A stretch of 38,601 nucleotides of DNA from a virus (Duplodnaviria > Caudoviricetes). Position 1 is the first letter of the stretch. Every line of letters starts with the position of its first letter. A program made the translations under genes and the position numbers. Shown one piece after another: positions 1 to 38,601 of this stretch. The stretch spans positions 1 to 38,601 of the IMG/VR virus record IMGVR_UViG_3300029825_000023; one strand, given 5' to 3'. The notes beneath the pieces are model-generated. The model ran no database searches, had not been told where the DNA came from, and worked only from the letters and a program-made list of their open reading frames with translations.

Positions 1-99
1 CATAAATATTTCTACGTTTTGCCTCTTCGACATAATCGGCAACTATTAAAAAGTAGTCAGCTAGGTTGTGATTCTTGATGACGTTGGCTTCAAGCTTTA
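1..99. repeat. 99-bp terminal overlap (identical to 38503-38601), circular contig
   Basis: cataaatatttctacg...caagcttta occurs at both ends, and the DnaE frame runs through the junction. Confidence 0.97.
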
Positions 100-1033
100 A
101 CCTCTCAATATATTCTTTATTTGCCAAGCCTCTTACTTTTAACTCGTTAATGCATTTCTTTTTCAGGTCTTTATAAGCATTATTTGTGTCAGGAAAAACA
201 GGAACAGAATCACTAAAATCAAGCTGTATGCCAACTTTGTCGTATATTTCCTCGAGATTATCAAGCATTTCCCTAGCTTGCTTTTTAGTAAATTCTCTTA
301 GTAACTTAGCTTTGATTTCCTTTTCTGAATGCATGTGACGAGCACCATAAGTTGCTTCAACATCTGATTTCTTGCCGCTTAACGCATGCATCACCTTATA
401 CGTTTCAAAGTCCTCATGCCTTGTATAATGGGAGTCAGTTGTTGGGATGCATTTCACGTTGTATGTTTTACCCAGTGAATATAGTTCCTTATTAGCTAGC
501 TCTTGCAACCCAACCTCGTCAATCGGGATAGGCATAATTTCAAAATAGAAGTTATCATGAAATATCCTTTTAAACCTCTTTGTTGCCTTTATGGCAAGCT
601 TATCATTATTGTTCACTATTGCCTGCGATACAATCCCGCCTATGCATGCTGATGTGCATATTACGCCTTCGTTATATTTTTCAAGTAGGTCGAAAGTAAC
701 TACGCCACGCCGATAGAAATTATGCTCGTTTGCATAAGTAATTATTTGCATGATGTTTGAGTAACCTGTTTGATTTTGAGCAAACAAACATAAGTGATAA
801 TATGGTTTGTCTTTATTAAAGTGGGGCTGAAAGTAAGCTTCAACCCCAATGATAGGCTTTATTCCTGCTTTGTTACACTCAAAATATAGTTTAGCTACCC
901 CTGCTGTGCTACCATGGTCTGATAAACCAAGGGCAGGCATCCCTAACTCTTTGGCATATTCTACAATGTCCTGAATACGACCAAAACCGTCAAATAAGCT
1001 ATATTGAGAATGCTTATGAAGCTCAAACCACAT
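1..1033 (-). CDS. dnaE: DNA polymerase III alpha (DnaE, family C), N-terminal part with PHP domain; continues across the junction into 38502-36896 (879 aa in total)
   Basis: Manual translation from ATG at 1033: MWFELHKHSQYSLFDG...LSDHG...IIGVEAY...YHLCLFAQNQTGY...TSACIGG...TTDSHY; 1033+1607 nt = 880 codons in frame. Confidence 0.93.
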   Translation of the reverse strand, partial: MWFELHKHSQYSLFDGFGRIQDIVEYAKELGMPALGLSDHGSTAGVAKLYFECNKAGIKPIIGVEAYFQPHFNKDKPYYHLCLFAQNQTGYSNIMQIITYANEHNFYRRGVVTFDLLEKYNEGVICTSACIGGIVSQAIVNNNDKLAIKATKRFKRIFHDNFYFEIMPIPIDEVGLQELANKELYSLGKTYNVKCIPTTDSHYTRHEDFETYKVMHALSGKKSDVEATYGARHMHSEKEIKAKLLREFTKKQAREMLDNLEEIYDKVGIQLDFSDSVPVFPDTNNAYKDLKKKCINELKVRGLANKEYIERLKLEANVIKNHNLADYFLIVADYVEEAKRRNIY

Positions 1034-1625
1034 ATTTACCAGCTACTTTCGTAAATTCTTGCAGGTCTTCTTTGTAAACATGAAGGCTGCCAATTAAGAA
1101 ATTCATGTCAAACTTCTGCTTATAATACAGCACTTTCCGGCCGGCTACGTAAGCTAAGTACATATCAGTAATGAAGTTATTATAAAAGTCACAACTTCTC
1201 ATGCCTACATTAATGTATGATTTATCATTGCGCTGCATAAAGTTTATAAATTGAAAGCAATGCATTTGGTCGAAAGTTATGCTTAGCTGCCTTGTTGTAA
1301 TAATCTCGTCAGCATCTGGATATGCTCTTACTATATTGCGAAGTTTATCCACGTTAAACCGCAGCTGAGCATAATCAGAAAGTATGTAATTGCCTATTTG
1401 CCCATTTGTAGCTCTTAATTCTAAAACAGCGTTTGCTATTTCCCAAGCTTGATTGATATTAAAGCCAATCAAATCGAAAAGCTCATTAAATGACTCCTCG
1501 GTAATATCTTTAAAACGAAGAGTGACTGCTGGAAGCTCAACTGTGTTGCTAACAAATTTTTTCTTCCTAGCTAGCTCAATTATTTGTTTAGCTTTGGGAC
1601 TTAATTTTTCAAGTATTTCCGACAC
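1023..1625 (-). CDS. Thymidylate synthase-fold protein, dCMP hydroxymethylase/methylase-like
   Basis: HCFQFINF (catalytic Cys), MRSCD-x7-D and IGSLHVY motifs. Confidence 0.8.
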   Translation of the reverse strand: MSEILEKLSPKAKQIIELARKKKFVSNTVELPAVTLRFKDITEESFNELFDLIGFNINQAWEIANAVLELRATNGQIGNYILSDYAQLRFNVDKLRNIVRAYPDADEIITTRQLSITFDQMHCFQFINFMQRNDKSYINVGMRSCDFYNNFITDMYLAYVAGRKVLYYKQKFDMNFLIGSLHVYKEDLQEFTKVAGKYVV

Positions 1626-1648
1626 ATATAAACCTCCCTAAATAATAA

Positions 1649-1727
1649 TGGAGAGCAGGGCAGGATTCGAACTCTGCTTTTCCAATAGTTTGCTGCTACT
1701 GGTATGTTGCCCTTACATCACCTGCTC
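1649..1727 (-). tRNA. Non-canonical tRNA-Cys(GCA)-like RNA with encoded CCA
   Basis: GAGCAGG/CCTGCTC acceptor stem, ATGT/ACAT D-stem, CCAGTAG/CTATTGG anticodon stem, loop CAGCAAA, GTTCGAATC T-loop, T-CCA end. Confidence 0.75.
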
Positions 1728-1737
1728 TCAAAAAAGA

Positions 1738-2691
1738 TTATTCAACACATAAGTATTTTTTAGCCTCTATGTTGATACGATAAAGTAATCTGTTGAAATA
1801 CTCAAATATTTCCTTGAAAAGATTCCAGCTCCCACCGGCAGTGCCATTCATCTCATTCCGGTATTTCTGATAAATAAAGTCATCAGGATGCCATTCAAAA
1901 ATGTCGCTGTCTTCATCCGGGAAATAAAGATTGGTAGCCTTTCCTGTCCTTGCCATATTGACATAAAACATAGATGGCTTATGGAAGTCAAATATGTCGT
2001 AGCAATATGGTATTTTAGCCACTATGCCACATGCCATCTGGTAGGCAATTATGTTATCAGTCTCAGGCTGGATTTGCTTGTCAATCCTTTGATTAATAAA
2101 TGCTATAGCATCTTTTAAATTCATGCGCATAAAGTAAAATGTTTCCAAGCAACGAGGGAGAATATACCTTGCATCCATAATTGAAACTTCTTTGCTGTCA
2201 ATCATGTCGCAATAAAGCTGCTTAGCATCTTTCGCTATTTGCTTATATCGTTCAAGAAATTCAGGTGAGTTTTCAATGCTCCATGGCACTAAAGCTGCTC
2301 TGTCCGTCCACCACTTATCACCTGAGCAGTCAGCACTGAAGCTACCGGTCCTATATCTAATAAGATGTGTTGCCTCTTGTATGCTAATACCAGATATTTT
2401 GAATACCAAGTTAATTGTTTCAAGAGCCGTTGGCAATGATTTGCCGAGTATACAATTTCGAATCAATTCGTCCTTTTCTCTTACTGAAAGTTTACGTGCA
2501 TCATTTGGGTCTTCAGCCCATGTTGCTTCAAGAAATTGCGGCAAATAATCCCTTAATTCATCAGGGGTAGGTGCTGCAATTAACTCAACATCAATAGCGC
2601 TAAGGTTATTTTTAAGAAGTGTTGTAGGTTTTTTGCCCCACTTTTGTTCCATGGGTAGTTCAACGGGTTGTAAGCTTTCATTCTTTGGCAT
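1738..2691 (-). CDS. Divergent flavin-dependent thymidylate synthase (ThyX-like)
   Basis: LIRYRTGSFS (RHRxxS-like), DARYILP, MNLKDAIAFINQR. Confidence 0.8.
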   Translation of the reverse strand: MPKNESLQPVELPMEQKWGKKPTTLLKNNLSAIDVELIAAPTPDELRDYLPQFLEATWAEDPNDARKLSVREKDELIRNCILGKSLPTALETINLVFKISGISIQEATHLIRYRTGSFSADCSGDKWWTDRAALVPWSIENSPEFLERYKQIAKDAKQLYCDMIDSKEVSIMDARYILPRCLETFYFMRMNLKDAIAFINQRIDKQIQPETDNIIAYQMACGIVAKIPYCYDIFDFHKPSMFYVNMARTGKATNLYFPDEDSDIFEWHPDDFIYQKYRNEMNGTAGGSWNLFKEIFEYFNRLLYRINIEAKKYLCVE

Positions 2692-2731
2692 TATAATCCT
2701 CCTTTGACAGAAATAAGGAGGGTTTCCCCTC

Positions 2732-2941
2732 CTATTCAGCTACCTCGTATCCTTGAATTATCCCTTTGGCGTACTCAATCATGTTTGCCTGAATCCATTT
2801 TGCAGTAGTGCTGTAGCCAAGCGTTTTAGCTATATCAATTACAACTGCAACATCAAACATGCTGGTTAGCCCTGTGTCCCTCGCTGCAAGAATACCATCG
2901 ATAATATCTTGGCTTGGAACCTGCGTCTTACCTCTTTCCAT
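2732..2941 (-). CDS. DUF5049-like small phage protein
   Basis: ILAARDTGLTSMFDV motif; RBS upstream. Confidence 0.6.
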   Translation of the reverse strand: MERGKTQVPSQDIIDGILAARDTGLTSMFDVAVVIDIAKTLGYSTTAKWIQANMIEYAKGIIQGYEVAE

Positions 2942-2994
2942 TTAAACCATCCTCTCGATTGCTGTAGTACCAAGCTTTAGCTTAGCCTAATCAT

Positions 2995-3041
2995 ATTATA
3001 TACTATTGGCAGCTTATATACTATTGGCAGCAGATGTAAAC
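2995..3041 (-). promoter_or_regulatory. Early-type promoter (GTTTACA...TATAAT) disrupted by an 18-bp tandem duplication
   Basis: ttatatactattggcagc occurs at 2996-3013 and 3014-3031; -35 TTTACA at 3035-3040. Confidence 0.65.
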
Positions 3042-3532
3042 CTTTTTATTAGTTCTTTTTCAAGCTCGTCTATCCGCTTATTTACACCATCTGCAAATTC
3101 AAACGTTTTGTTTCCAAGCGCAGCTTCAACCATGCAATATTGCCTTACGCTATAAAGGTCTGCAAGCTTAACAACACTAAATATCTCTTCGTCCTTGCTA
3201 TGCAAAGCGTAATCGGGATAGTTGTCTTCCATAAAACTGTCTTCGAATATTTGTAGCAGCATGCGTAGCGTTTCGCTTAAGTCTTTTACGTCAGAAGGTA
3301 CATCACTCAATATTGTTTCAGGTACGTCATGCAACAAAGCATATTCAATGCACTTAGCTTTTAGCTCTCCTTCGATGCTTAGCTTGTCGCATATTTCAAG
3401 CACAAATAGAGCTGTGAAAAATGAATGCTCAGCTACACTTTCATTGATTAGTCGTAGCCTGTGATTGTATCTAACAAGCGTTTTTAATTTATAAACTTCC
3501 ATAAGATAATCATTAGTTAATAAAGGCATCAT
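3014..3532 (-). CDS. HD-domain deoxynucleotide phosphohydrolase (YfbR/DatZ-like)
   Basis: VRY...ESVAEHS...ALLHDVPE...SDVPS...VKLAD. Confidence 0.88.
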   Translation of the reverse strand: MMPLLTNDYLMEVYKLKTLVRYNHRLRLINESVAEHSFFTALFVLEICDKLSIEGELKAKCIEYALLHDVPETILSDVPSDVKDLSETLRMLLQIFEDSFMEDNYPDYALHSKDEEIFSVVKLADLYSVRQYCMVEAALGNKTFEFADGVNKRIDELEKELIKRFTSAANSI

Positions 3533-4476
3533 TCGACTGCCCCCTTGTATAGGTTGCGTGTTCCTCTGAGAACATTCATTATTTTGTCCTTAATAGAAAT
3601 ACCTTCTGAGGAAGTAAATTCATCTCGACCTAAGATAGTAAGGTTTCCCGATTGAGCTAACATTACGTTAAATTTACCGCTGGTGCCAATCGTTTCATTA
3701 TAATATACAACAGGTTTATTTTTGCCGTAGGCGTAGCCAGCTTCCCATATTGTGCCTATATCCTTGCCATCAGTAACAGCAAATACTAGGTCGCAATTGT
3801 TTATTTCCTTAATGTTGTCCTGAAAAGCTTTCTCGCGCTCCTCCTGTGTAGCGCTAGGGGTTAACAGAATATTTTCACGCGGGCTAAATACTCTGAATCC
3901 TATGTGCCTAAGTTCTTTTATCAGCCGCTCTTCTCGTTCAATTTGAGACGGGTTGAAAAATGGAGCAGCAAAATATATTTTGGGAACGTAAATATCAAAT
4001 TGCTCAGTTAAACTTTTAACAACGTCGTTAATACTATTAAAATCACATGTATATTTCTTTCTAATTGTGCTTGCTTTAAAGAATGCTTCAAAAATTGCCT
4101 GATATATTTCCAAATCTTTTCCATGAGCTTCAGACGCTCTTTTTAAATCGCTCTTGTCAGTAGGAACAACAAGAATTAAAATAGCATCAAGCTCTGAAAG
4201 CTTTTTGTCTATTATTTCAATTTCAAATGATGTATAATTTCTTTCAAGTGCCCCATAAACAAACTCGGTCATGTGAAAACGGTCAATAACAATGTTTTCG
4301 TTTTTGAATATTTCTAAAAACCGAAGCGATGTGTTAAGCTTTTCTAGAGCAACGTCTTTTGTTATTTTCATACCTTCAAAATATGAATCTTTAAAGAGCT
4401 TGAAGCCATGTTCAACAAACTTATTGCAAAGAGTGGTTTTACCCACCCTATCAATACCTTCTACAATAACTATCAA
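3529..4476 (-). CDS. Fusion of a dNMP (thymidylate-type) kinase and a nucleoside 2-deoxyribosyltransferase/N-glycosidase domain
   Basis: N-term EGIDRVGKTT P-loop and DRF...E.VY; C-term IYFAAPFF, DIGTIWEAGYA, NVML. Confidence 0.85.
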   Translation of the reverse strand: MIVIVEGIDRVGKTTLCNKFVEHGFKLFKDSYFEGMKITKDVALEKLNTSLRFLEIFKNENIVIDRFHMTEFVYGALERNYTSFEIEIIDKKLSELDAILILVVPTDKSDLKRASEAHGKDLEIYQAIFEAFFKASTIRKKYTCDFNSINDVVKSLTEQFDIYVPKIYFAAPFFNPSQIEREERLIKELRHIGFRVFSPRENILLTPSATQEEREKAFQDNIKEINNCDLVFAVTDGKDIGTIWEAGYAYGKNKPVVYYNETIGTSGKFNVMLAQSGNLTILGRDEFTSSEGISIKDKIMNVLRGTRNLYKGAVE

Positions 4477-4483
4477 TTTACAT

Positions 4484-4807
4484 TTACTCCTCTCGATGAA
4501 TACTTAAATTAGGGTCAAATCCTTCAGGGTACCGACGTTTTAGTTTGTCAATGTTACGCTGCGCCATCTCTTCTAGAGTGATTCCACAAGCACGAGCTAA
4601 CTTGGCTACGTACCAAAGGGTGTCCCCGCCTTCTTCGATAAGTTTATCTACATCAAGCTCGTGCCCTTGGTCTAGTACTTTTTTCATGTGCTCCAATGTC
4701 TCGGCGGCCTCCCCAACCACGCCCATGGTTGCATTGCGTAAAGCGTTCAGCTTATCCATCGGAGCGTCTGTTCTTGCAGCTAGCAATTGATATTCGTCAA
4801 GTGTCAT
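4484..4807 (-). CDS. MazG-like nucleotide pyrophosphohydrolase
   Basis: MTLDEYQ...GVVGEAAE...EEGGDTLWYV...NIDKLKRRYP; start reassigned to ATG at 4807. Confidence 0.88.
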   Translation of the reverse strand: MTLDEYQLLAARTDAPMDKLNALRNATMGVVGEAAETLEHMKKVLDQGHELDVDKLIEEGGDTLWYVAKLARACGITLEEMAQRNIDKLKRRYPEGFDPNLSIHREE

Positions 4808-4808
4808 T

Positions 4809-5567
4809 TTACCAATCGTCGTCATTGTCCTCGTCCTCATCTGTATCATCAGAACCCCGCTCTTCGTCGTCCTCATCATCATTCCAAATCTGCTCTTCTT
4901 CGTCCAACTCCTCCAAAAGCTCTATATAGTATTCTGCTGATTTCTTGGGGTTTGGGTCAAGGTCACGTTCCTTACAGAGTTGATAGAGTTCTTTTGCAGA
5001 CATATCTTCATAGTTTATTACTTCGTCATCGTCGTCGTCATCCACTGGAACTTCAATATCAGGTGAAAACGCTTTACCTATCATTTTTATCATGGCGTCA
5101 CGGGTTGGAGCCTTAACTTTACTTTTGAACTTAGCCTTGTCCATTGGAATAACAGAGTAAGATGTACTTTGCTGTTTGCCTTTACGTTCTAGTACATAAT
5201 CCCGGTCGGTAATGGTTCCGTAAGTTTCATACATGCTTATGAGTGCAGGGATAGGGGTACAATTGTTAACCGCATAAAGCAGTATTTTAACCTCGTTGGC
5301 ATCGTAGTCATAAACGGGCCATGCATAGTTGTTGCGGGTTCTTAGCTCATCGTTATTGCAGAACTTACATTTCTTTTTGCCTAGCTCCTTTGCACAAATG
5401 CAATTAATACCCTTAGCAAAGCTATCGTGGAAAACAAGCTCTAGGCCTTTTTCAAAGTCAACAAGAAAGCGAATCCTACGCTTTGTGTCGGCTTTAATAA
5501 ATAGAATTTTACCTTTGCTGCCACCAGATTTAGCAATGTCCTCTTTCATACTTTTAAGAATTGACAA
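4809..5567 (-). CDS. Putative single-stranded DNA-binding protein (gp32-like) with acidic tail
   Basis: RIRFL..H..C..CKFC Zn-like motif, acidic C-terminus, adjacent to primase. Confidence 0.65.
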   Translation of the reverse strand: MSILKSMKEDIAKSGGSKGKILFIKADTKRRIRFLVDFEKGLELVFHDSFAKGINCICAKELGKKKCKFCNNDELRTRNNYAWPVYDYDANEVKILLYAVNNCTPIPALISMYETYGTITDRDYVLERKGKQQSTSYSVIPMDKAKFKSKVKAPTRDAMIKMIGKAFSPDIEVPVDDDDDDEVINYEDMSAKELYQLCKERDLDPNPKKSAEYYIELLEELDEEEQIWNDDEDDEERGSDDTDEDEDNDDDW

Positions 5568-5568
5568 A

Positions 5569-6528
5569 TCAAAATCCTCCCATCGTTTTTCTTTTTGCTG
5601 CTTTTAATAGCTTGGGTGTCATGTCCCCCATGTCTTTTACCCTTCTAGGGTATTGAAAAGGGACTACCTCAAAATGTTGTTTTAAGAAAGCAGTCCCTTT
5701 TTTACCGCATTCATCGTTGTCTAGTGCCGAGATTATTGTTGTTACACCTTGCTTTTTTAACTTTTCTATCTGCTCTTGTGTTGCTTTCCAGCCTAAAATA
5801 GCACATACATATTTGATGCCAAGTTGCTTAGCCTTTAAGTAGTCCATATAGCCCTCTACCACAACAACTCTGTAATTATCATATTTACCAACAATAGTGC
5901 TTCGCCTGCTGAATCCTTTATTATATAAGTATTTCCGTTTCTGTTCTATCTCGGGGCTGGTTGTCCTACAAACCCAACCTTTAAACTCCCCCATGTCACG
6001 CATAGGAAATATAATAGGATATGAGTCATTATAGGTTAGTTTTGCTCCGGCTTTGTTGAGAGATTCGGGATTGAAGCCTCGACATAGTAAATAATGCTTT
6101 TCAACCGAATCCTCAACAAGCCAGTCCACTTTACGAAGATTGTAATAATAATCCTCAGCCCTTACTAGCAATTTCTTTTGCTCCCTTGAGCGTTGTTGCT
6201 TTGTTTTTGAGTTATGTAAGGTAACATTATTGGGCCCTGACTTGTTCATAGTGAAACGATATAATAATTGCCATTGCTCTATAAGGGTAAGGTTATGATT
6301 GAACATCTGGATTAATTCTAGGGCCCCTCCCCCTTTTTGACAACCAAAACAAAACCATCTACATTCATTTACATCAATCAAAAGGCTTGCATTTACATCA
6401 GCGTGGAAAGGGCAAACAACTTTGTATTTTGTTTCACCCTCCCAAAGGTTATAATGCTCAAGTACTTTAATAAATGTTTCAGGGCTGCCAGCTTGTTCAT
6501 AAAGGGATTTTGCAATATCAATCGCCAC
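5569..6528 (-). CDS. DNA primase (CHC2 zinc finger + TOPRIM)
   Basis: CPFH...CFGC; VVEGYMD; ALDND. Confidence 0.92.
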   Translation of the reverse strand: MAIDIAKSLYEQAGSPETFIKVLEHYNLWEGETKYKVVCPFHADVNASLLIDVNECRWFCFGCQKGGGALELIQMFNHNLTLIEQWQLLYRFTMNKSGPNNVTLHNSKTKQQRSREQKKLLVRAEDYYYNLRKVDWLVEDSVEKHYLLCRGFNPESLNKAGAKLTYNDSYPIIFPMRDMGEFKGWVCRTTSPEIEQKRKYLYNKGFSRRSTIVGKYDNYRVVVVEGYMDYLKAKQLGIKYVCAILGWKATQEQIEKLKKQGVTTIISALDNDECGKKGTAFLKQHFEVVPFQYPRRVKDMGDMTPKLLKAAKRKTMGGF

Positions 6529-6530
6529 CC

Positions 6531-6983
6531 TTAAGTTATTGTAATTGATTTGCGTATTTGAGCGTTGTAACAGCCATCGATATCTTCCAGCGATAGTTGG
6601 TTAGTATCAAAAAGCTGTTTAATTGCATCATTATTTACCGCCTTCCGAACCTCAATTAGGTCTTTAAATTGCTTTGGCTTAATACCTGCTTCTCTGAGCA
6701 AAGATGTTAAACCTGCATAATTTACTACGACGACTTCTTTGTCAATTATTTGCTTGCCAAGCTCTTTGGGCAGCTTTTTCTCAAGTTTTTCTATATCATA
6801 AGCGATAATTAATGCTTTTCTGCATGTAGCTGTGTGGCTATCTGTAGCCATGCTATTGCTTGCAGAGTTGTCGAAAGCTTTAATTAAGATGTCACGACGT
6901 TTATCGTATTCGGCTTCTATATTTTCCTTTTTAACTTTCAACTCATGCATTTCGTCGATTATCTTATTATAATCTTGCTTCAT
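6531..6983 (-). CDS. Hypothetical protein
   Basis: 150-aa ORF tightly packed in the operon. Confidence 0.75.
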   Translation of the reverse strand: MKQDYNKIIDEMHELKVKKENIEAEYDKRRDILIKAFDNSASNSMATDSHTATCRKALIIAYDIEKLEKKLPKELGKQIIDKEVVVVNYAGLTSLLREAGIKPKQFKDLIEVRKAVNNDAIKQLFDTNQLSLEDIDGCYNAQIRKSITIT

Positions 6984-7461
6984 TTGTTGTAACCCTGCCT
7001 TTTGTCAGCTCCTCAAATATCCCTCGGGGCCAGCGCTGACCTGTCTTATACCAAACAACTGCTTTCTTGTTCACGAGGTACCTTATGCCACGCTTTGTCT
7101 CTATGCGGAACTTGTCGGCGTGAATCTCAACAATTTTGCCGCTGTACATCCTGTCTCCTACATAAAATGCAACCAGCACGCCCACCTCGGCGCTGTCTTC
7201 ATACCTGTCCTTCGCAGGGTTCCTTACACGTTTTTCCTTCATACGTTTTTCTACTGCCTCCTCAAAGCTAAGATGTTTACTGCCTTTGCTCTTTGCATTG
7301 TTGTTCAAATGAGCATTGTTCTGCGCCTCTTTAGCGATGATTGCTTCAACAAGGTCTGCTTTCTTCATGTCATGTCTTCCAACGATTTGCAAGTCTTTTG
7401 CAACCTCAAGCAAGTGTTTTTTCGTGCAATTAAGCAACTCAGTTCTCTTTTCTCTTTCCAT
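6967..7461 (-). CDS. Protein with N-terminal Rho-N/HeH-like motif and C-terminal SH3-like segment
   Basis: LLEVAKDLQIVGRHDMKKADLVEAI; GAGGAGG RBS before ATG at 7461. Confidence 0.6.
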   Translation of the reverse strand: MEREKRTELLNCTKKHLLEVAKDLQIVGRHDMKKADLVEAIIAKEAQNNAHLNNNAKSKGSKHLSFEEAVEKRMKEKRVRNPAKDRYEDSAEVGVLVAFYVGDRMYSGKIVEIHADKFRIETKRGIRYLVNKKAVVWYKTGQRWPRGIFEELTKGRVTTNEARL

Positions 7462-7488
7462 TACAATTCCTCCTCTAAGTAAATTTAA

Positions 7489-7504
7489 AGGGGCCGAAGC
7501 CCCC
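7489..7504 (-). terminator. GC hairpin with UUCG loop (terminator-like)
   Basis: GGGGC-TTCG-GCCCC followed by TTT on the minus strand. Confidence 0.5.
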
Positions 7505-7558
7505 TTGTGTTCTGTTAGTGGGCGCATTTACCTATCTTGTAGGGCCGGGACCTGCTTT

Positions 7559-7774
7559 TTATGCTTTATGGATGGGGGTGCGCTTGACCGCAAAATACCT
7601 CTCCGTGACTTCAAAGCCTTCTTTTTCCAGCGCATCAAGAATAGCGGTTGCCATGATTTTAGCAACTCTGGTACTGCAAATAATTTCGCTTTGTATCGTT
7701 CTTTCGATAATTTCGAGAATTGTCAAAGATTCCTCCTCCCTTCTGCGGGGCACTTTCCATTTTATATTTTCCAT
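7559..7774 (-). CDS. Hypothetical early protein
   Basis: Strong GAGGAGGAGG RBS directly after a promoter. Confidence 0.7.
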   Translation of the reverse strand: MENIKWKVPRRREEESLTILEIIERTIQSEIICSTRVAKIMATAILDALEKEGFEVTERYFAVKRTPIHKA

Positions 7775-7825
7775 TTTATCCTCCTCCTCTTGAGTGTTTT
7801 GGCCTTTTTCCTTGGCCTTGATTCT

Positions 7826-7875
7826 ATTATATCATACCTATTTAAAATGTAAACCTTTTTTAAAAATATTTTTAT
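7826..7875 (-). promoter_or_regulatory. Early promoter: A/T-rich UP element, GTTTACA, TGA-TATAAT
   Basis: -35 TTTACA at 7848-7853, 16-nt spacer, extended -10 at 7826-7834; conserved at 5 other sites. Confidence 0.8.
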
Positions 7876-7876
7876 T

Positions 7877-8077
7877 TTATTTTTCTTGGTCCTTGCCAGC
7901 TGCTTTCCCGTCCACATAACTCTCACCCAAAATAAACGCTGTCACCACGCCAGCAATCCAGGCGTAGGCTTCCCGGTCGATAGGTGTTCCGAATCCTTCA
8001 TTCAGGATAATGAACAGTGCACTGAACAGCGCGGATAAGAACTTGCGGCTTTTCAGTCTTTGTAGAAACGGTCTCAT
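7877..8077 (-). CDS. Holin
   Basis: LKSRKF motif, two TM helices, GESYVD, next to endolysin. Confidence 0.75.
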   Translation of the reverse strand: MRPFLQRLKSRKFLSALFSALFIILNEGFGTPIDREAYAWIAGVVTAFILGESYVDGKAAGKDQEK

Positions 8078-8736
8078 TTCTTAAGCACCCCTTCCCGTTC
8101 TAAGATTACCAAGGTTTTCAATGTAGACTCCGGCAGATTGATATTACCTTTTCCATCGCCAGCCAAAGACTTCCTGTCTATCAGTTTTTTAATCAAAGGT
8201 TTGCCCCAATCCGGCACATCTTCAAAAGTTTTATAAACCGCTTCTTCACTTCCTTTCAAGTCACTAAACAACCGCTGCCACGGAAAGCCGGGTCCAGGGC
8301 AGTTAGGACGATTCACGCTGTCAATGCGATAATGGCCGATAATATGGCCCTCATCTATCGGTATGCCATGCTTGGCGATAAGCTGTTTATGTAACCATAA
8401 AGTAGCCTGATACTGCATTTCCGTAAGCCGTTCTCCCGGTAGCGCTTCATGTTCTATGCCTATAGTATACCTGTTAGGATTAGAACCGTCGTATAGAGGC
8501 CAACTAGGCTTGTTTACTACTCCGGCATGCCACGAAGTATCTTCATCCCGTACCATCTGATATATTTTGCCTTGCCGAGTGATAAGATAATGTGCACTTG
8601 CTTTTGCCTGCGGATTCCTCATCCACGACAAGCAGCCAGGAAATGCTCCTGCAGTTATATGGTTAACTATAGCAATTATTTTCTTTCCATTGCGCCCTTT
8701 GCTAAAATTTGGGCTTGCCGCCCATTCAATCTCCAC
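8074..8736 (-). CDS. Endolysin, N-acetylmuramoyl-L-alanine amidase (Amidase_2) with SLH-like C-terminus
   Basis: IVNHIT, ASAHY, SWHAG, IGIEHE, IIGH, CPG; FEDVPDWG. Confidence 0.93.
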   Translation of the reverse strand: MEIEWAASPNFSKGRNGKKIIAIVNHITAGAFPGCLSWMRNPQAKASAHYLITRQGKIYQMVRDEDTSWHAGVVNKPSWPLYDGSNPNRYTIGIEHEALPGERLTEMQYQATLWLHKQLIAKHGIPIDEGHIIGHYRIDSVNRPNCPGPGFPWQRLFSDLKGSEEAVYKTFEDVPDWGKPLIKKLIDRKSLAGDGKGNINLPESTLKTLVILEREGVLKK

Positions 8737-8938
8737 TTTCGTCCCTCCCTTCAAGCTTTACTTTTTCGCGAGTTATTTTCGATAAACTCCAAAGCTCTAC
8801 TGTAGTAAAACTGAACCAAGCTACTATCAACGATGTTGGCTCACTACCTATCCTATAAAATAAAAACAAAATAGCTATAGTAAAAGCAATATTCAAAATC
8901 AATACTAAAGCTACTATTTTCTTGCTAAAATTATTCAT
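8726..8938 (-). CDS. Small two-TM membrane protein (lysis module)
   Basis: Hydrophobic segments; position in lysis module. Confidence 0.65.
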   Translation of the reverse strand: MNNFSKKIVALVLILNIAFTIAILFLFYRIGSEPTSLIVAWFSFTTVELWSLSKITREKVKLEGRDESGD

Positions 8939-29834: not shown

Positions 29835-30325
29835 TTCTTCGACCTCCTATTTTCATATTCCTGCTGCTTTTCTTCCCAAAATTTTTCTTTGTTACCCGAA
29901 GTGATTTTACGCCTATTTAGCTGCTGGCTTGCCGTTTCATCTTGGTCCTTTTGAAGCAATTCATTTATAATAGTAGGTTGTGGCTTGTTCGCCATTGAAA
30001 GATTATTACCAAACAAATGGTTATATACCTCTTGTATGTTATTAACCTCTACAACCAAGTATAGTTTATCTGGCTTTATAAAGTCAATAATGAATACCGG
30101 GGCTTTGTGTTCTACCATTGCATGATATTCCAACTTCTTGATATCATCAAGCGTTATTCTGTAGCTGCTTGCGTCTGTTGACTTAAGTTGGGCTAACACA
30201 TGGTCATTATAGCCGTCTTCCTTTTCCTTCCAACCTGCACCAGATGCTTTAGTCGGCGTAAGGCCCAACCTCTCCATTATTTCCTTTTCACGCTTGAAAT
30301 ACCACTTAATTGGTCTTTTTGCCAT
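29831..30325 (-). CDS. PD-(D/E)xK Holliday-junction-resolvase-like nuclease
   Basis: E...PTKASGAG..KEDG...QLKST. Confidence 0.6.
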   Translation of the reverse strand: MAKRPIKWYFKREKEIMERLGLTPTKASGAGWKEKEDGYNDHVLAQLKSTDASSYRITLDDIKKLEYHAMVEHKAPVFIIDFIKPDKLYLVVEVNNIQEVYNHLFGNNLSMANKPQPTIINELLQKDQDETASQQLNRRKITSGNKEKFWEEKQQEYENRRSKN

Positions 30326-30609
30326 TTTGAATCTCGAATCTCCATAGCCCCCATAATAGCATAATTAGCTAAATCCAGCAGGGTGTCGATTGCCGTCTCG
30401 TCGTTCTCCTCTGCACCCTTAAGCAGGAGCTGTTTTGCTCGGCTAAGCTTGTCGTCTAGCCTGATACATAGCATTGTTGGCCCATACTCTTCGTAGGTCT
30501 TTGAGAATGAATTACCATAAGCTGCATTCTTTTGCTCATACAAATCATTCAAAAGCATGCATAATCTTTTATGGTTCCTGACGTTAGCAGGTTTCTCCCC
30601 ATTTACCAT
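30277..30609 (-). CDS. DUF1599 / nucleotide-modification-associated all-alpha NTP-PPase-like protein
   Basis: KNAAYGNSF...IRLDDKLSR...DTLLDLANYAIM. Confidence 0.85.
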   Translation of the reverse strand: MVNGEKPANVRNHKRLCMLLNDLYEQKNAAYGNSFSKTYEEYGPTMLCIRLDDKLSRAKQLLLKGAEENDETAIDTLLDLANYAIMGAMEIRDSKWQKDQLSGISSVKRK

Positions 30610-30932
30610 TTTTTTATCCTTCCTTTGCATAATCTTTCGGCGTCATGTGAAAGCTTAATTTCGTCCTCCGAGCTAAGTTTCCCGGGCAAATCAAACCCCG
30701 TACTACCATCGAAGTCCTTAAAGTAACAGGCATAACGTGACAACCTCGACTGCCGTGGATGTTGCCCCATTAAGCTTACCAACTGATAGCAGTTACGGTC
30801 AAACTGTGAATCTGTCACAATGCTTTGTCCTAGATTGTAGTAAACAATACTATGAACAATAATCCACCTCTGTAGTAGTTCAATCTTTTCTAACACAGTA
30901 AAGTGCGGGTTGCGCTTGAAGTCCATTTGCAT
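30603..30932 (-). CDS. Stand-alone NAD-dependent ligase domain-Ia-like protein
   Basis: HSIVYY...IVTDSQFD...L. Confidence 0.7.
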   Translation of the reverse strand: MQMDFKRNPHFTVLEKIELLQRWIIVHSIVYYNLGQSIVTDSQFDRNCYQLVSLMGQHPRQSRLSRYACYFKDFDGSTGFDLPGKLSSEDEIKLSHDAERLCKGRIKKW

Positions 30933-31016: not shown

Positions 31017-32132
31017 CTAGGCTATTGCCTTGAAAGCCTTCCAATATTTATTACTGGTGTTAACTGGTCTGATTGTCCTGATTGTATCCTTGTCCATTCC
31101 TTTAACAACTGCTATTACTATGACCTTTTCTAGGGGCAGAGCTTTTTCCAGTTTTTCTACCGATATGATTGCCCGGTAGCTGAAGGTTGCTCTAATTCCG
31201 ATTGATTTGCATTCTTCACGAAGTTCGTTGATGAAGTCTACCAGTTCTTTGTTGCCTTTGGCCAGCGCCATCTCTATGTTCCGGTCGTAGTCAAATTCTA
31301 TTACTGCAAACCTGTCCAGCGAGCTTTGGTCCAGCGTTAACCTTCCTGTATACTGTTCGTCTGCCCCATCGCCTACCGTGTTTCCTGCTGCTACTATCCT
31401 GAACTCCGGGTGAGCAAATATCTTGCCGTTTGGAAATTCGAAATATCTATTTGCTATAGCTGCATTGAGTAGTACTAAAACCTCTGGGATGCTGGCGTCC
31501 ATTTCATCCAGGAAGAATAAACCGCCATCCTTGAAAGCCTTGTAAAATTCTGTTTCGTGGTAGATTCCGCCTGCATCAATGAACCCTGTGATTTTGAACT
31601 CCTGCTGTACTGCGTTTGTGAAGTAGAAGTCTAATTCTAGGTCCGTTGCTATTTGCTGGAGTGTGTGGTTTTTACCTGAGCCAGCTGGCCCTACCAAGTA
31701 TACTGGGATGTCGTTCTCAATGCATGCTTTGATTGTTTCATATTCTTTGTGTACTACGTATCCGTTGTTGGTTTTTGCTTCGTGTTCCTTTTCAATCTTT
31801 TCGATTGCCTTTTCAAAGGTGATTCCTTTTTCGTAGTTCCCTATCCATTCAACGTCTTGTGCTTCGTTATTTTCGTTTACCTGTGAGAACTTATAGATGT
31901 TTGTGTTTAAGTTGAATAGGTAGCTTCCTGCCAAGACGCCGGTTTTCCGAGGGTAGAGCTTTCTTGTGTGAGCCTTGTGACCTTTGGTGATTATCGCCTT
32001 TTCGAAGTTGTCAAGTGCTTGTACATTTAAGCTGTTGTTGTCTACCTTGATTTCCACTTGCTTGTCCTCCTCTTGAGCGTTGATGTTCTTCACCATAACC
32101 GCCTTTTCAGTTTCCATTAAAATCTCTAACAT
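31017..32132 (-). CDS. MoxR/CobS-like AAA+ ATPase
   Basis: GPAGSGKN, FFLDEMD, AAGNT, LDRF. Confidence 0.9.
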   Translation of the reverse strand: MLEILMETEKAVMVKNINAQEEDKQVEIKVDNNSLNVQALDNFEKAIITKGHKAHTRKLYPRKTGVLAGSYLFNLNTNIYKFSQVNENNEAQDVEWIGNYEKGITFEKAIEKIEKEHEAKTNNGYVVHKEYETIKACIENDIPVYLVGPAGSGKNHTLQQIATDLELDFYFTNAVQQEFKITGFIDAGGIYHETEFYKAFKDGGLFFLDEMDASIPEVLVLLNAAIANRYFEFPNGKIFAHPEFRIVAAGNTVGDGADEQYTGRLTLDQSSLDRFAVIEFDYDRNIEMALAKGNKELVDFINELREECKSIGIRATFSYRAIISVEKLEKALPLEKVIVIAVVKGMDKDTIRTIRPVNTSNKYWKAFKAIA

Positions 32133-32231
32133 TAATATCGTCCTCCTCTGAGTGATTTTAATTTCTGAGTGATTATGTTTCCCCCTTTATTCGATTTTCA
32201 AAGAGCTTAGGAAGGCCTTGTCCATGTATTA

Positions 32232-32260
32232 ATTATAACATAACCACTCAGAATGTAAAC
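32232..32260 (-). promoter_or_regulatory. Early promoter GTTTACA-16-(TGT)TATAAT
   Basis: -35 at 32254-32259; -10 at 32232-32237. Confidence 0.75.
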
Positions 32261-33004
32261 CTATTTTTGAATCTTTTTTATAAAGATTTCACCTTTTTTC
32301 AAATATTTCTTAAGGGCATCTTCCTCTAATGGCACGCCGTAAGCATTAAAGCTACCGTGCAATGTTGGGTCAACCTCTATTAGCCTGAATAAAATTCTTC
32401 TTAGCATGCTAGGATGCACCAGCGGAAAAGCTACTTTTGAAACGTTCAACCGTTCACTTGCTGATTTAATTTTAATTCTGCAAAGAACCCCTTGTTTTTT
32501 ATCTGCTGAACCGAGGATAATGTAGAGGTTTACCGCATATCCTTGTGTTTCCAACGTTCTTACTAAATGCAAAACTTTGATGCTTTCCTCTTCAATTACC
32601 TGCTTGCTTATTCCTGCATGATAGCTGATGTCTTTTACCAACGTAATTATCTTTTTCTTTTCGGAAACTTTCTTTTTGTTGTACATGTTTGTGGGTATTC
32701 CTTGCAAATACCGAGGAACTGAAGCCTGATAGCCTACTACATCATATGTTGTTTTCTGCTTTGTTGCATTGTCGATTTTGATATCGTTAAGCTTTTTAGT
32801 AAGAACCTGCGCTTCAGCTCTCCAGCCGTGCAAGAAAAGGTCCACTGCTTCATCATAACTTTTAGTACCTGTGAACCATTCATTGCCTGTTATGCTTGAC
32901 CTTATATGTTCAGCTTGAAAAATACTTCCGTAAGGAGTATCTGTGATGTATCTGTATAGCTCGTTTAAGCTATTGAAGTTGTGCACCCCTGTGATTTTAC
33001 TCAT
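32261..33004 (-). CDS. vWA/CobT-like partner of the MoxR ATPase
   Basis: DVVG...VPRYLQG.P..M; DIS; HPSMLRR; adjacent to the AAA gene. Confidence 0.65.
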   Translation of the reverse strand: MSKITGVHNFNSLNELYRYITDTPYGSIFQAEHIRSSITGNEWFTGTKSYDEAVDLFLHGWRAEAQVLTKKLNDIKIDNATKQKTTYDVVGYQASVPRYLQGIPTNMYNKKKVSEKKKIITLVKDISYHAGISKQVIEEESIKVLHLVRTLETQGYAVNLYIILGSADKKQGVLCRIKIKSASERLNVSKVAFPLVHPSMLRRILFRLIEVDPTLHGSFNAYGVPLEEDALKKYLKKGEIFIKKIQK

Positions 33005-36895: not shown

Positions 36896-38601
36896 TTAAT
36901 TGCATATTAAGCTGGCGTTATACTTTATTACTCTACTTAAATAGCGTTTCATATTAAACTCAGCAGCCCCATGCTCAACAAGGGAATTAATTACTCCTTT
37001 GTGGACTGCCCTACTTCTACAGCGTTCGACAAACTCATCAATAGATTTATACGGACCATTTTCTTTCCGTTCGTTTTCAATATACTCGGCCGCTTTAAGG
37101 CCAACACCGTTAATAGTCGTAAGGCCTTCTTGTATTACCTTTTCACCATCAACTTTGCGAAGAGAATAATCAGCTGAGTAGTTAACATGGGGAAGGAATA
37201 TGACTATGCCATCTTTGGCAGCATCTTTCCTAAATTGCCAATCTTTAGTTTTGTCGTAGCTATACTTCATGCTTGCATACCAGAACTCAGCAGGGTGGAA
37301 TATTTTGTGGTACATTTGCCATTCTGATATAAGAGCGTAACCTGAGCCGTGGCCTTTGTTAAACAAATATAATGTCATACTATCAAACAGTTCAGCAGCT
37401 TCTTGCTTGTTAACTTTACTTATTTTATTTGCCCCTTCAACGAACTTGTCTTTTAGTTCAAGTCGTTGTTCTTCGTTAAATTTAAACTTCATAATCTTAT
37501 CAACGTCGTCATTGTGCATTTGAGCAAGCCCTTTGCAGATACGCATTACATGTTCTTGATAAATAATTGTGCCATAACTGTCAGCAGTATAAGGGTACCA
37601 CGGAGTATTTTTGTTAGGCTTTACTTTGTTCTCAGCATAGTGTGTGTGCATTTGTAATTGCAAAGGGCCGGGTCTATTAAGTGATACAGCAGCTATCAGG
37701 TCTTGAATGTTGTCCGCTCCCATTGATACAAGAATATCTTGAGCAGTTGGCTTATTTAGCTGGAATATGCCCATAGTCTTTCCTGTTTTGAAGCCGTCAT
37801 AGATAGCTTGTTTTTGCTTCTTCGATGCAGTTCGTGTGACGTATTTATCACCGGTTAACTCTTCGATTTCGTGGATGATGTTTAATGTTTTCAGCCCAAG
37901 AATGTCAAACTTAAGGAAGTCGAAAGCTTCAATATCATATTTATCAAAGCATGTAACGAACTTCCCTTTCACTTTCATCAACGACATATAGCTACCAATG
38001 GAGTTTCGTGTAATTACAACACCAGCTGCGTGAGTTCCGTAGTAACGTACTTGACCATAAAGTTTGCAAAAATGCGTGATGATATTGCTATATTGCTTTT
38101 CAAGCCTGCGCATTTCAGGAAGTGCTATAATTTTATTATAATCTACACCTTCAAACTCAAAGTGAGCTTTATCGTCAACGTTTTTATCAAGCGTGCTTTT
38201 GAATATCTTTGCATCTTCCTCATCCATTTCAAAATGTTTTATGAAGTCGTTGCATAGGTTTTTTACACGATAGAACCCAAATGTAATTACTTGAGCCGAG
38301 TGCCCTTTGTATTTTTCAAGCAAGTATTCTATAATTTCATCACGCAAACCATACTCAAAGTCAAGGTCTATATCAGGCATCTTCTTTTTATCAGCTCTGA
38401 GAAAGCGTTCGAAATCATTGCCTATTTCTACAGGGTCAACGTTCGTAATGCCTAATAAGTTAGCTATAAGCGAGCCACAAACGGAACCCCTTCCGGGTCC
38501 TACATAAATATTTCTACGTTTTGCCTCTTCGACATAATCGGCAACTATTAAAAAGTAGTCAGCTAGGTTGTGATTCTTGATGACGTTGGCTTCAAGCTTT
38601 A
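36896..38601 (-). CDS. dnaE: DnaE polymerase, C-terminal part (palm/fingers/HhH); same gene as 1-1033
   Basis: GPGRGS, FERFL, PDIDLDF, HAAGVVI, KFDILGL, IIYQE, YLFNKGH. Confidence 0.95.
   Translation of the reverse strand, partial: KLEANVIKNHNLADYFLIVADYVEEAKRRNIYVGPGRGSVCGSLIANLLGITNVDPVEIGNDFERFLRADKKKMPDIDLDFEYGLRDEIIEYLLEKYKGHSAQVITFGFYRVKNLCNDFIKHFEMDEEDAKIFKSTLDKNVDDKAHFEFEGVDYNKIIALPEMRRLEKQYSNIITHFCKLYGQVRYYGTHAAGVVITRNSIGSYMSLMKVKGKFVTCFDKYDIEAFDFLKFDILGLKTLNIIHEIEELTGDKYVTRTASKKQKQAIYDGFKTGKTMGIFQLNKPTAQDILVSMGADNIQDLIAAVSLNRPGPLQLQMHTHYAENKVKPNKNTPWYPYTADSYGTIIYQEHVMRICKGLAQMHNDDVDKIMKFKFNEEQRLELKDKFVEGANKISKVNKQEAAELFDSMTLYLFNKGHGSGYALISEWQMYHKIFHPAEFWYASMKYSYDKTKDWQFRKDAAKDGIVIFLPHVNYSADYSLRKVDGEKVIQEGLTTINGVGLKAAEYIENERKENGPYKSIDEFVERCRSRAVHKGVINSLVEHGAAEFNMKRYLSRVIKYNASLICN
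38503..38601. repeat. 99-bp terminal overlap (copy of 1-99)
   Basis: Identical sequence. Confidence 0.97.

Follow-up and report, generated by a model that had tools for sequence, protein, structure and literature searches.

A conserved phage gene module around an atypical ThyX, probably for cytosine replacement

Base replacement is well known among phages, and the question raised by the locus analyzed here is whether its genes carry out such a replacement, of which base, and by which chemistry. The locus lies at the left end of a 38.6-kb virus record (Caudoviricetes; IMG/VR IMGVR_UViG_3300029825_000023), whose full 38,601 nt, bounded by direct terminal repeats, are called the window below. 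All on the minus strand, it encodes a MazG-like pyrophosphatase, a fusion of a kinase with a nucleoside 2′-deoxyribosyltransferase (NDT), an HD-domain 5′-deoxynucleotidase (HD), a ThyX-fold flavoprotein, a minimal thymidylate synthase fold (TS-fold) protein, and the polymerase DnaE. A preliminary description had interpreted these genes, together with a tRNA-like element, as an operon for the synthesis of a modified cytosine. Open reading frame (ORF) and profile searches of the window find all the named genes, co-oriented and densely packed, with the TS-fold gene overlapping the start of dnaE (1033) by 11 nt. Comparison with relatives indicates that the cluster is real and conserved and is probably a cytosine-replacement module, the exact chemistry of which can be proposed only tentatively. 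The idea of a set of enzymes that makes a new nucleotide and destroys the old one, most likely for cytosine, gains support from synteny, slot exchange, and site avoidance, whereas the two C5 enzymes, MazG, the tRNA-like element, and DnaE do not hold as its joint parts.

The atypical ThyX and its partners

Among 46 loci with a ThyX of the window's type (Cys-ThyX, see following; locus L014 was left out by the ORF filter), 40 have NDT and 40 have HD, and two of those lacking NDT/HD are cut by contig ends. Conversely, when the best 80 of 448 NDT-seeded loci are inspected, 73 have a ThyX-fold gene nearby, nearly always atypical, and 55 have HD within the flank, many of these 80 being near-duplicates or overlapping the Cys-ThyX set. 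The conserved synteny that the preliminary description had put forward as a check is thus found in both directions. Where HD is missing, a nucleotidase of the NT5C/HAD type stands in. Cys-ThyX has 706 homologues; in a separate search, the matches with E ≤ 1e-30 fall into 70 clusters when grouped at 50% identity. It occurs in several backbones: DnaE siphovirus-like phages, SPbeta-like phages, small phages bearing a ligase, a PolB phage, and large phages. One of the carriers, the SPbeta-like Geobacillus phage GR1 (OK896991), is cultured (Cys-ThyX, 47.5%). A query over the NDT domain matches only five cultured phages, namely GR1, GXN1, LIS04, and two vibriophages; an atypical ThyX lies close by in every one of them, and in GXN1 the order is NDT-HD-ThyX. 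The cluster is a conserved and exchangeable phage module present in several backbones. Its core is the Cys-type ThyX, NDT, and a 5′-nucleotidase; MazG, the TS-fold protein, and the tRNA-like element are outside the core. Relatives add glycosyltransferases, S-adenosylmethionine (SAM) methyltransferases, or a sugar epimerase, which is consistent with a hydroxylated base. The sole GTDB matches (L066–L068) are phage-like contigs, possibly mis-binned, in metagenome-assembled genomes labeled Ruminococcus, Clostridia, and Bacteroidales.

The ThyX-like protein (317 aa; model pLDDT 87) has Foldseek matches to ThyX only. It lacks the canonical motif RHR-x7-S-x-R, having instead R-[YH]-R-x7-C-S-G-D (RYR-x7-C-S-G-D in the window), and it misses the cut-off of NCBIfam TIGR02170 (42.5 vs. 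87.9 bits). Mapped onto T. maritima ThyX, C122 corresponds to S88, L86 to H53, T108 to R74, A120 to E86, and D125 to Y91, with Gly-Asp standing in place of R90-Y91, so that the folate-stacking His53 and Tyr91 are not kept. The arginines R112, R114, R175, and R202, equivalent to R78, R80, R147, and R174, are retained. CSGD and the leucine at the L86 position are present in 120 of the 120 nearest homologues, and the protein has extensions at both termini and about 100 residues more than canonical ThyX. The accessible parts of two studies indicate that H53 stacks folate and that S88 and Y91 help carbon transfer (PMC11940539, PMC8316439), and those of the latter that ThyX accepts a free aldehyde, formaldehyde, through a flavin N5 carbinolamine. 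Of 49 records, 7 also have a second ThyX (Thy1) gene with a far higher score, and canonical ThyX is present in 5 of the 46 Cys-ThyX loci. Because H53, R74, and Y91 are replaced and a canonical-type ThyX co-occurs, Cys-ThyX is predicted from its sequence not to be the dTMP synthase of the phage. In short, it shares with canonical ThyX (T. maritima TM0449; PolB) the fold and the FAD/nucleotide arginines and differs from it in the substituted positions, in its greater length, and in branching separately. A sister clade with the motif E-S-Q-M (SQM) groups with the Cys type (SH-aLRT 97), both apart from the other ThyX types, in a tree made by quick search, without bootstrap, and with gp130 of phage SP-15 left out.

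Aligned with 1s2d, the NDT domain keeps E245, D239, and N270, which we take to be, respectively, the Glu nucleophile and the 5′-OH-binding Asp/Asn pair of nucleoside-acting enzymes; where the acid/base Asp would be expected, all 23 aligned sequences have Asn (N221). The NDT tree is poorly resolved, with long branches and interleaved Cys, SQM, and gp130 labels. The kinase domain of the fusion weakly matches SPbeta YorR (2axp, E 0.013). A dUTPase_2-type gene is present in 31 of the 46 Cys-ThyX loci, at the position that MazG fills in the window; MazG is a local replacement of the dimeric dUTPase/dCTPase-type gene of most relatives and not, as first described, a component of the module.

The preliminary description also called for two C5-pyrimidine enzymes. 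The TS-fold protein (200 aa; model pLDDT 89.5) has a minimal ThyA fold with a catalytic C123 and a cytosine-type D154 (T4 D179). The residues C123, R143, S144, D154, and H182 are invariant in 22 sequences, which thus have the catalytic Cys, Arg-Ser, His-x-Tyr, and Asp-179 features. The structural ranking, which is that of Foldseek, places the HY126 dCMP hydroxylase AfhB (9iqu) second by E-value (TM 0.60). Proteins of this type have 150–200 aa, with D, N, or E at the D169-equivalent, and Pfam PF00303 does not match the window copy. As far as the accessible text of PMC13326640 goes, a preference for dCMP goes with N177D and hydroxylase activity with D169N; the window protein has the dCMP-preference Asp but not D169N, as it has D146 (RSCD), whereas the GR1-type copies have the Asn that is a signature of 5hodCMP synthases. 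The TS-fold profile matches 9 of 25 near-complete virus records, and the gene is present in 19 of the 46 Cys-ThyX loci. It is accessory and dispensable to the module; hence, two C5 enzymes are not needed. The idea that it stands in for the zinc deaminase by deaminating dCMP covalently was considered and rejected, because two genomes (G002 and G003) have both and several complete genomes have neither.

The tRNA-like element folds as a cloverleaf. It is not called by ARAGORN at default settings or by Rfam, and at the 85% threshold of ARAGORN it is called alongside two other doubtful candidates. Its anticodon is not kept (GCA vs. GCT in the nearest relative), and it is missing from more distant loci. 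Being sub-threshold and not conserved, it was rejected as a part of the module and is probably a degenerate tRNA outside it.

Slot exchange and the identity of the base

The module of the window occupies a slot between the genes of SSB and DnaE. Seeding with SSB gave 80 loci, of which 79 were new and could be classified by slot content: 47 are empty, 13 contain TS-fold modules (several with glycosyltransferases), 7 DNA methyltransferases, 3 Cys-ThyX, and 2 SQM-ThyX, with 7 other or unresolved. DnaE is common to the empty-slot kin, and elsewhere the module adjoins other polymerases, so DnaE is a backbone gene and not the module polymerase that had been supposed. Modules for 5-hydroxymethylcytosine (hmC) occur in the slot without NDT and HD, which indicates that this pair tracks the atypical ThyX and not base replacement in general. 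In L071 (SSB 88% identical; 4590-8850), the slot is filled by dUTPase_2, an hmC-type synthase-kinase, and a carbamoyltransferase; a TS-fold gene of the window type is kept behind a short dnaE-like start. This chimera looks like the recombination scar of a recent module swap. The carbamoyltransferase and the hmC-type synthase presumably provide carbamoyl-hmC chemistry. As the slot exchanges its content with a methyltransferase, with hmC plus glycosyltransferase, and with carbamoyl-hmC genes, it is therefore a DNA-protection slot.

Other gene sets are also found. Six loci (L097, L099, L111, L112, L115, and L118) represent a slot variant in which a kinase and a dUTPase_2-like gene accompany an Asp-type TS and one or two TS-fold proteins of very divergent sequence. 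Three (L089, L098, and L135) have modules of hmC-type synthase and glycosyltransferase with a radical SAM gene. In L144 and L148, queD/queE/folE-type genes and a TIM-barrel-like ORF follow dnaE, likely a 7-deazaguanine module in the same backbone.

Avoidance of restriction sites provides information on the base. Palindromes were counted against a Markov expectation in loci of 9–17 kb, of which 22 have an empty slot, 15 have Cys-ThyX, 7 have SQM, and 5 have hmC with a glycosyltransferase. Four-mers composed of G and C only are purged in the empty-slot kin (median observed/expected 0.36) vs. 0.78 in Cys loci with the TS-fold gene and 0.83 in those without; the values are 1.37 for SQM, 0.69 for hmC with glycosyltransferase, and 1.03 for the window. 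Sites composed of A and T only show no difference between the groups. The nominal p values for the Cys groups (4e-4 and 1e-3) are overstated, as kin are not independent. Within a single dataset prefix, GGCC stands at 0.83 in 8 Cys loci vs. 0.03 in 15 empty ones. Two "empty" loci without avoidance turn out to carry queD/folE-type genes past dnaE, an unplanned positive control. GC-only restriction sites number 120/127 (observed/expected) in the window and, among known phages, 95/89 in GR1, 50/127 in PBC1, which has a canonical ThyX, and 2/61 in the thymine-modified SP-15. Depletion of TT is seen in the gp130-type phages, a set including LIS04, with a median of 0.80, but not in Cys-ThyX phages (1.12). 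Relaxed GC-only sites without TT depletion favor a modified C (or G) and argue against T. In conclusion, it is very probable that the module modifies phage DNA and probable that the modified base is cytosine. Modification of T in the manner of SP-15 was downgraded after these results. Loci of the SQM clade (L070, L074, L169–L188, L214, and L235), which combine NDT and HD with a kinase and either a SAM methyltransferase or a glycosyltransferase-like gene, do not avoid GC-only sites either.

A possible chemistry and its alternatives

The closest parallel is SP-15, which encodes together a tandem NDT (gp127), a short-chain dehydrogenase/reductase (SDR, gp129), and an atypical Thy1 (gp130), plus HD, a kinase, and HAD. 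Homologues of gp130 are found in seven other phages, including Carin-5 and YerA41, and the six gp130-family phages tested, SP-15 among them, all encode NDT and a YfbR-type HD above Pfam cut-offs. Ribose label reportedly goes into dihydroxypentyl-uracil, to go by the title of Walker and Mandel 1978. The linkers on thymidine are of 88 Da in Carin-5 and of 104 Da in YerA41 (PMC12686479, accessible part). In the hypermodified thymine of SP-15, the linker is of 88 Da as well. By arithmetic, 104 Da is C4H8O3, which a reduced 2-deoxyribose chain at C5 of uracil adds to thymine. In its accessible part, PMC5977210 places the SP-15 modification at the nucleotide level, with a proposed hmdUMP route and gp130 guessed to be the hmdUMP synthase; there and in the corresponding part of PMC12686479, the biosynthesis of the three linkers is left unexplained. 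These phages, with C5-polyhydroxypentyl-uracil, share with the module an atypical ThyX associated with NDT, a YfbR-type HD, and a kinase. They differ in modifying T, avoiding GC-only sites, and using UDG-PolA, and gp130 differs from Cys-ThyX in having about 400 aa, keeping SxR, and being only remotely related. In Listeria phage LIS04 (L154:5968-8620), a tandem NDT syntenic with gp127 is followed by an atypical ThyX (gp124) unlike gp130.

Other known systems share parts of the logic. The hmC system of T4 (gp42, gp56, and gp1) also makes the new nucleotide and destroys the old one, and the TS-fold dCMP hydroxylases HY126 AfhB and RB69 gp48 have in common with the window protein the Cys nucleophile and Asp179. 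Unlike in these, the window TS-fold protein is truncated, dispensable, and without D169N, the core enzyme of the module has a ThyX fold, and no glycosyltransferase is identified in the window genome. The DatZ/MazZ/PurZ set of Z-genome phages has HD and MazG hydrolases by a polymerase, as in the window, but no PurZ is found among the window proteins scanned, which include pyrimidine enzymes instead.

The explanation that we favor, tentatively, is that the module makes a C5-substituted dCMP replacing cytosine, with Cys-ThyX attaching a hydroxylated five-carbon chain from 2-deoxyribose; that the attached group derives from a sugar is likewise put forward as a possibility. MazG or dUTPase_2 would convert canonical pyrimidine dNTP to dNMP, HD would strip the phosphate, and NDT would split the nucleoside, thereby draining the canonical pool and freeing deoxyribose. 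In the ThyX-fold enzyme, N5 of the reduced FAD would trap the deoxyribose aldehyde in the way that canonical ThyX captures formaldehyde. C5 of dCMP would be activated by attack of Cys122, the counterpart of Ser88, on C6, and elimination with hydride transfer would give 5-(3,4,5-trihydroxypentyl)-dCMP or a closely similar product. Phosphorylation by the kinase and by the host nucleoside diphosphate kinase would yield the triphosphate for incorporation by DnaE; in relatives, glycosyl- and methyltransferases would cap the hydroxyls, and the side chain would shield phage DNA from bacterial restriction enzymes. As NDT and HD track the atypical ThyX, the pair may feed it a sugar aldehyde, with the Cys/SQM clade using this chemistry on dCMP, and the analogy with SP-15 suggests deoxyribose as the C5 alkyl donor. 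That a folate-free reductive C5-alkylation of dCMP with the 2-deoxyribose released by NDT and HD yields 5-(trihydroxypentyl)cytosine, and on dUMP explains the linkers of SP-15 and YerA41, is conceivable though rather doubtful.

Several observations weigh against this explanation. The SQM clade keeps Ser at position 88 and yet has relaxed GC-only sites, which weakens the Cys-nucleophile step, and R174, the uracil-N3 activator in ThyX, is retained as R202. NDT and HD could simply destroy dCMP or dTMP. In L026 and L030, a FAD protein (weak UDP-galactopyranose mutase match, E 0.0099) and a HAD nucleotidase replace NDT and HD next to Cys-ThyX, and L047 and L048 have neither within the flank. Comparison of Cys-ThyX with gp130 gives no HMM match and an hhalign probability of 6.5% over 51 columns, so SP-15 is an analogy and not an orthology; a reductase gene as the reason for 88 vs. 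104 Da was rejected, since YerA41 also has a gp129-like SDR (32%). Relaxed GC-only sites fit C or G alike, the loci are phylogenetically non-independent, with different hosts, and some avoidance controls are weaker (Carin-5 25/41, YerA41 11/14, phiXF1 0.85). Avoidance of GATC persists in the window (25/100) and is likewise seen in L071. Finally, CC is not depleted and genomes with the module are easily assembled from metagenomes, both of which speak against a substitution that is complete and very bulky.

These last two points would suit a cytosine that bears only a 5-methyl, 5-hydroxymethyl, or 5-hydroxy group. Cys-ThyX, the Asp-type TS-fold enzyme, or both would make this small modification, and MazG, HD, and NDT would only destroy dCTP/dCMP. 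Such a base is unlikely, even if the site-avoidance pattern matches that of the hmC kin, the TS-fold protein has C123 and D154 and best matches T4 dCMP hydroxymethylase, MilA, and AfhB, and GR1-type copies have the D169N signature, with a nitroreductase gene beside ThyX. Against it, the TS-fold gene is missing in 16 of the 25 near-complete genomes and Cys loci without it still have relaxed GC sites, the window protein has D146 and not Asn, the folate His of ThyX is lost, and hmC modules of the slot dispense with NDT/HD; an O2-dependent hydroxylase is also ill-suited to the fermentation, landfill, and biogas sources indicated by shared-word matches. If Cys-ThyX alkylated dUMP instead, giving a polyhydroxypentyl-dUMP and a thymine replacement as in SP-15 and YerA41, the common logic of NDT, HD, and atypical ThyX, the retained R174, the dCMP deaminase of 19 of 48 records, and the UDG of some loci would find a place. 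This is improbable, because, in contrast to gp130 phages, there is neither avoidance of GC-only sites nor depletion of TT, and because the SxR motif of gp130 is lost in Cys-ThyX, which groups with SQM (in the quick tree without gp130).

It is hardly more plausible that the DNA is unmodified and the genes serve ordinary nucleotide-pool metabolism, as a divergent dTMP synthase with salvage and sanitizing enzymes. The Pfam/NCBIfam names (Thy1, MazG, YfbR, and NDT) speak for it, as do the absence from the window, in profile scans, of any thymidylate synthase besides the cluster genes and the existence of an S88C ThyX structure (3g4c). The co-occurring canonical ThyX, the exchange of the slot with methyltransferase and hmC modules, the loss of restriction-site purging, and the glycosyl- and methyltransferase neighbors in relatives speak against it. 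A modified guanine, introduced by base exchange through NDT with a base made by the flavoenzyme, would equally account for the relaxed GC-only sites, which the queD/folE kin also show, and the best PHROG of HD is annotated as dATP triphosphohydrolase. Both synthase folds are, however, those of pyrimidine-C5 enzymes, and no purine-pathway genes are seen in the cluster, making this very improbable.

The enzyme family, its linkage with NDT and HD, and the predicted base are undescribed in the accessible literature: no description of the module was found in the literature searched, which excluded subscription journals (including the HY126 study) and supplements, and none is given in the accessible parts of PMC13697223 and PMC8989533. 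The present comparison adds the linkage counted in both directions, the exchange of slot contents, a C-vs.-T signature for which SP-15 serves as control, and a cultured, non-pathogen phage, GR1, as a test case. If the proposed C5-alkylation of dCMP were true, it would mean a new nucleobase, would extend a flavoenzyme family so far associated with methylation alone to a new C–C bond-forming reaction, and would reveal a means by which a large set of phages counters restriction. A dUMP version would account both for the pentyl linker of SP-15, unexplained for 50 years, and for the 104-Da linker of YerA41, and the origin of the SP-15 base would be testable with three small enzymes.

Layout of the locus and further observations

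Features of the window that bear on the module
Feature	Coordinates	Strand	Remark
SSB-like protein	4809..5567	-	PHROG SSB matches; upstream edge of exchangeable slot
MazG-like (d)NTP pyrophosphatase	4484..4807	-	PF03819 E 3.6e-10
Kinase-NDT fusion, whole gene	3529..4476	-	starts 7 nt past MazG; 4-nt overlap with HD
Fusion, N-terminal P-loop dNMP-kinase-like domain (YorR/TMK-like)	3991..4476	-	phrog_761 E 3.6e-10
Fusion, C-terminal NDT domain	3529..3990	-	PF05014 E 4.6e-20; alignments to 6evs/1s2d
YfbR/OxsA/DatZ-like HD 5′-deoxynucleotidase	3014..3532	-	PF12917 E 9e-17; phrog_7076; PDB 2cqz, 5tk6, 2paq
DUF5049 small ORF	2732..2941	-	profile match; shared with closest relative only
Terminator-like hairpin	2716-2733		between HD and ThyX genes
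Cys-type ThyX-fold flavoprotein, core enzyme	1738..2691	-	PF02511 E 5e-19
Degenerate tRNA-like cloverleaf (probable)	1649..1727	-	fold z -2.3
Minimal ThyA-fold (TS-fold) protein	1023..1625	-	best profile matches T4 dCMP hydroxymethylase, MilA
DnaE N-terminal part (PHP domain)	2..1033	-	profile matches
DnaE C-terminal part	36896..38599	-	runs on across terminal repeat
Nucleotide modification associated domain 1 (DUF1599)	30277..30630	-	PF07659 E 6e-8; outside cluster

Co-orientation and packing agree with the operon of the preliminary description, but its continuity is uncertain, because the DUF5049 ORF, a probable passenger, and the hairpin separate HD from ThyX. The hairpin is itself weak (5 found in the scan vs. 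3.1 expected), and the promoter scan of the window is at chance level (17 vs. 13.6). A short direct repeat, tatactattggcagc, present in two copies at 2996-3034, covers the stop codon of HD together with the gap that precedes DUF5049 and is possibly an insertion scar. The dnaE gene (879 aa in total) is broken by the contig end and resumes at 38599-36896 through the terminal repeat of about 98 bp. CheckV completeness of the window is 76%, and relatives are mostly of about 45 kb. By shared words only, and ignoring small-share rows, 8 of 24 public runs share at least half of the window's words, with labels of fermentation, landfill, or unspecified metagenomes; raw or long reads of this phage are not among the listed data. 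The host may be a firmicute.

Another gene set is found in Xanthomonas phage XcP1 (L017:7989-15504) and in L050–L064, of Carpasina type, with a FAD protein weakly similar to UDP-galactopyranose mutase, an RTR-type ThyX, HAD, often SDR, and DnaE. This is likely a further undescribed modification module in cultured phages. Elsewhere in the window (31017-33004), an AAA ATPase adjoins a DUF7192 protein, and the genome also encodes RecA and RNase H.

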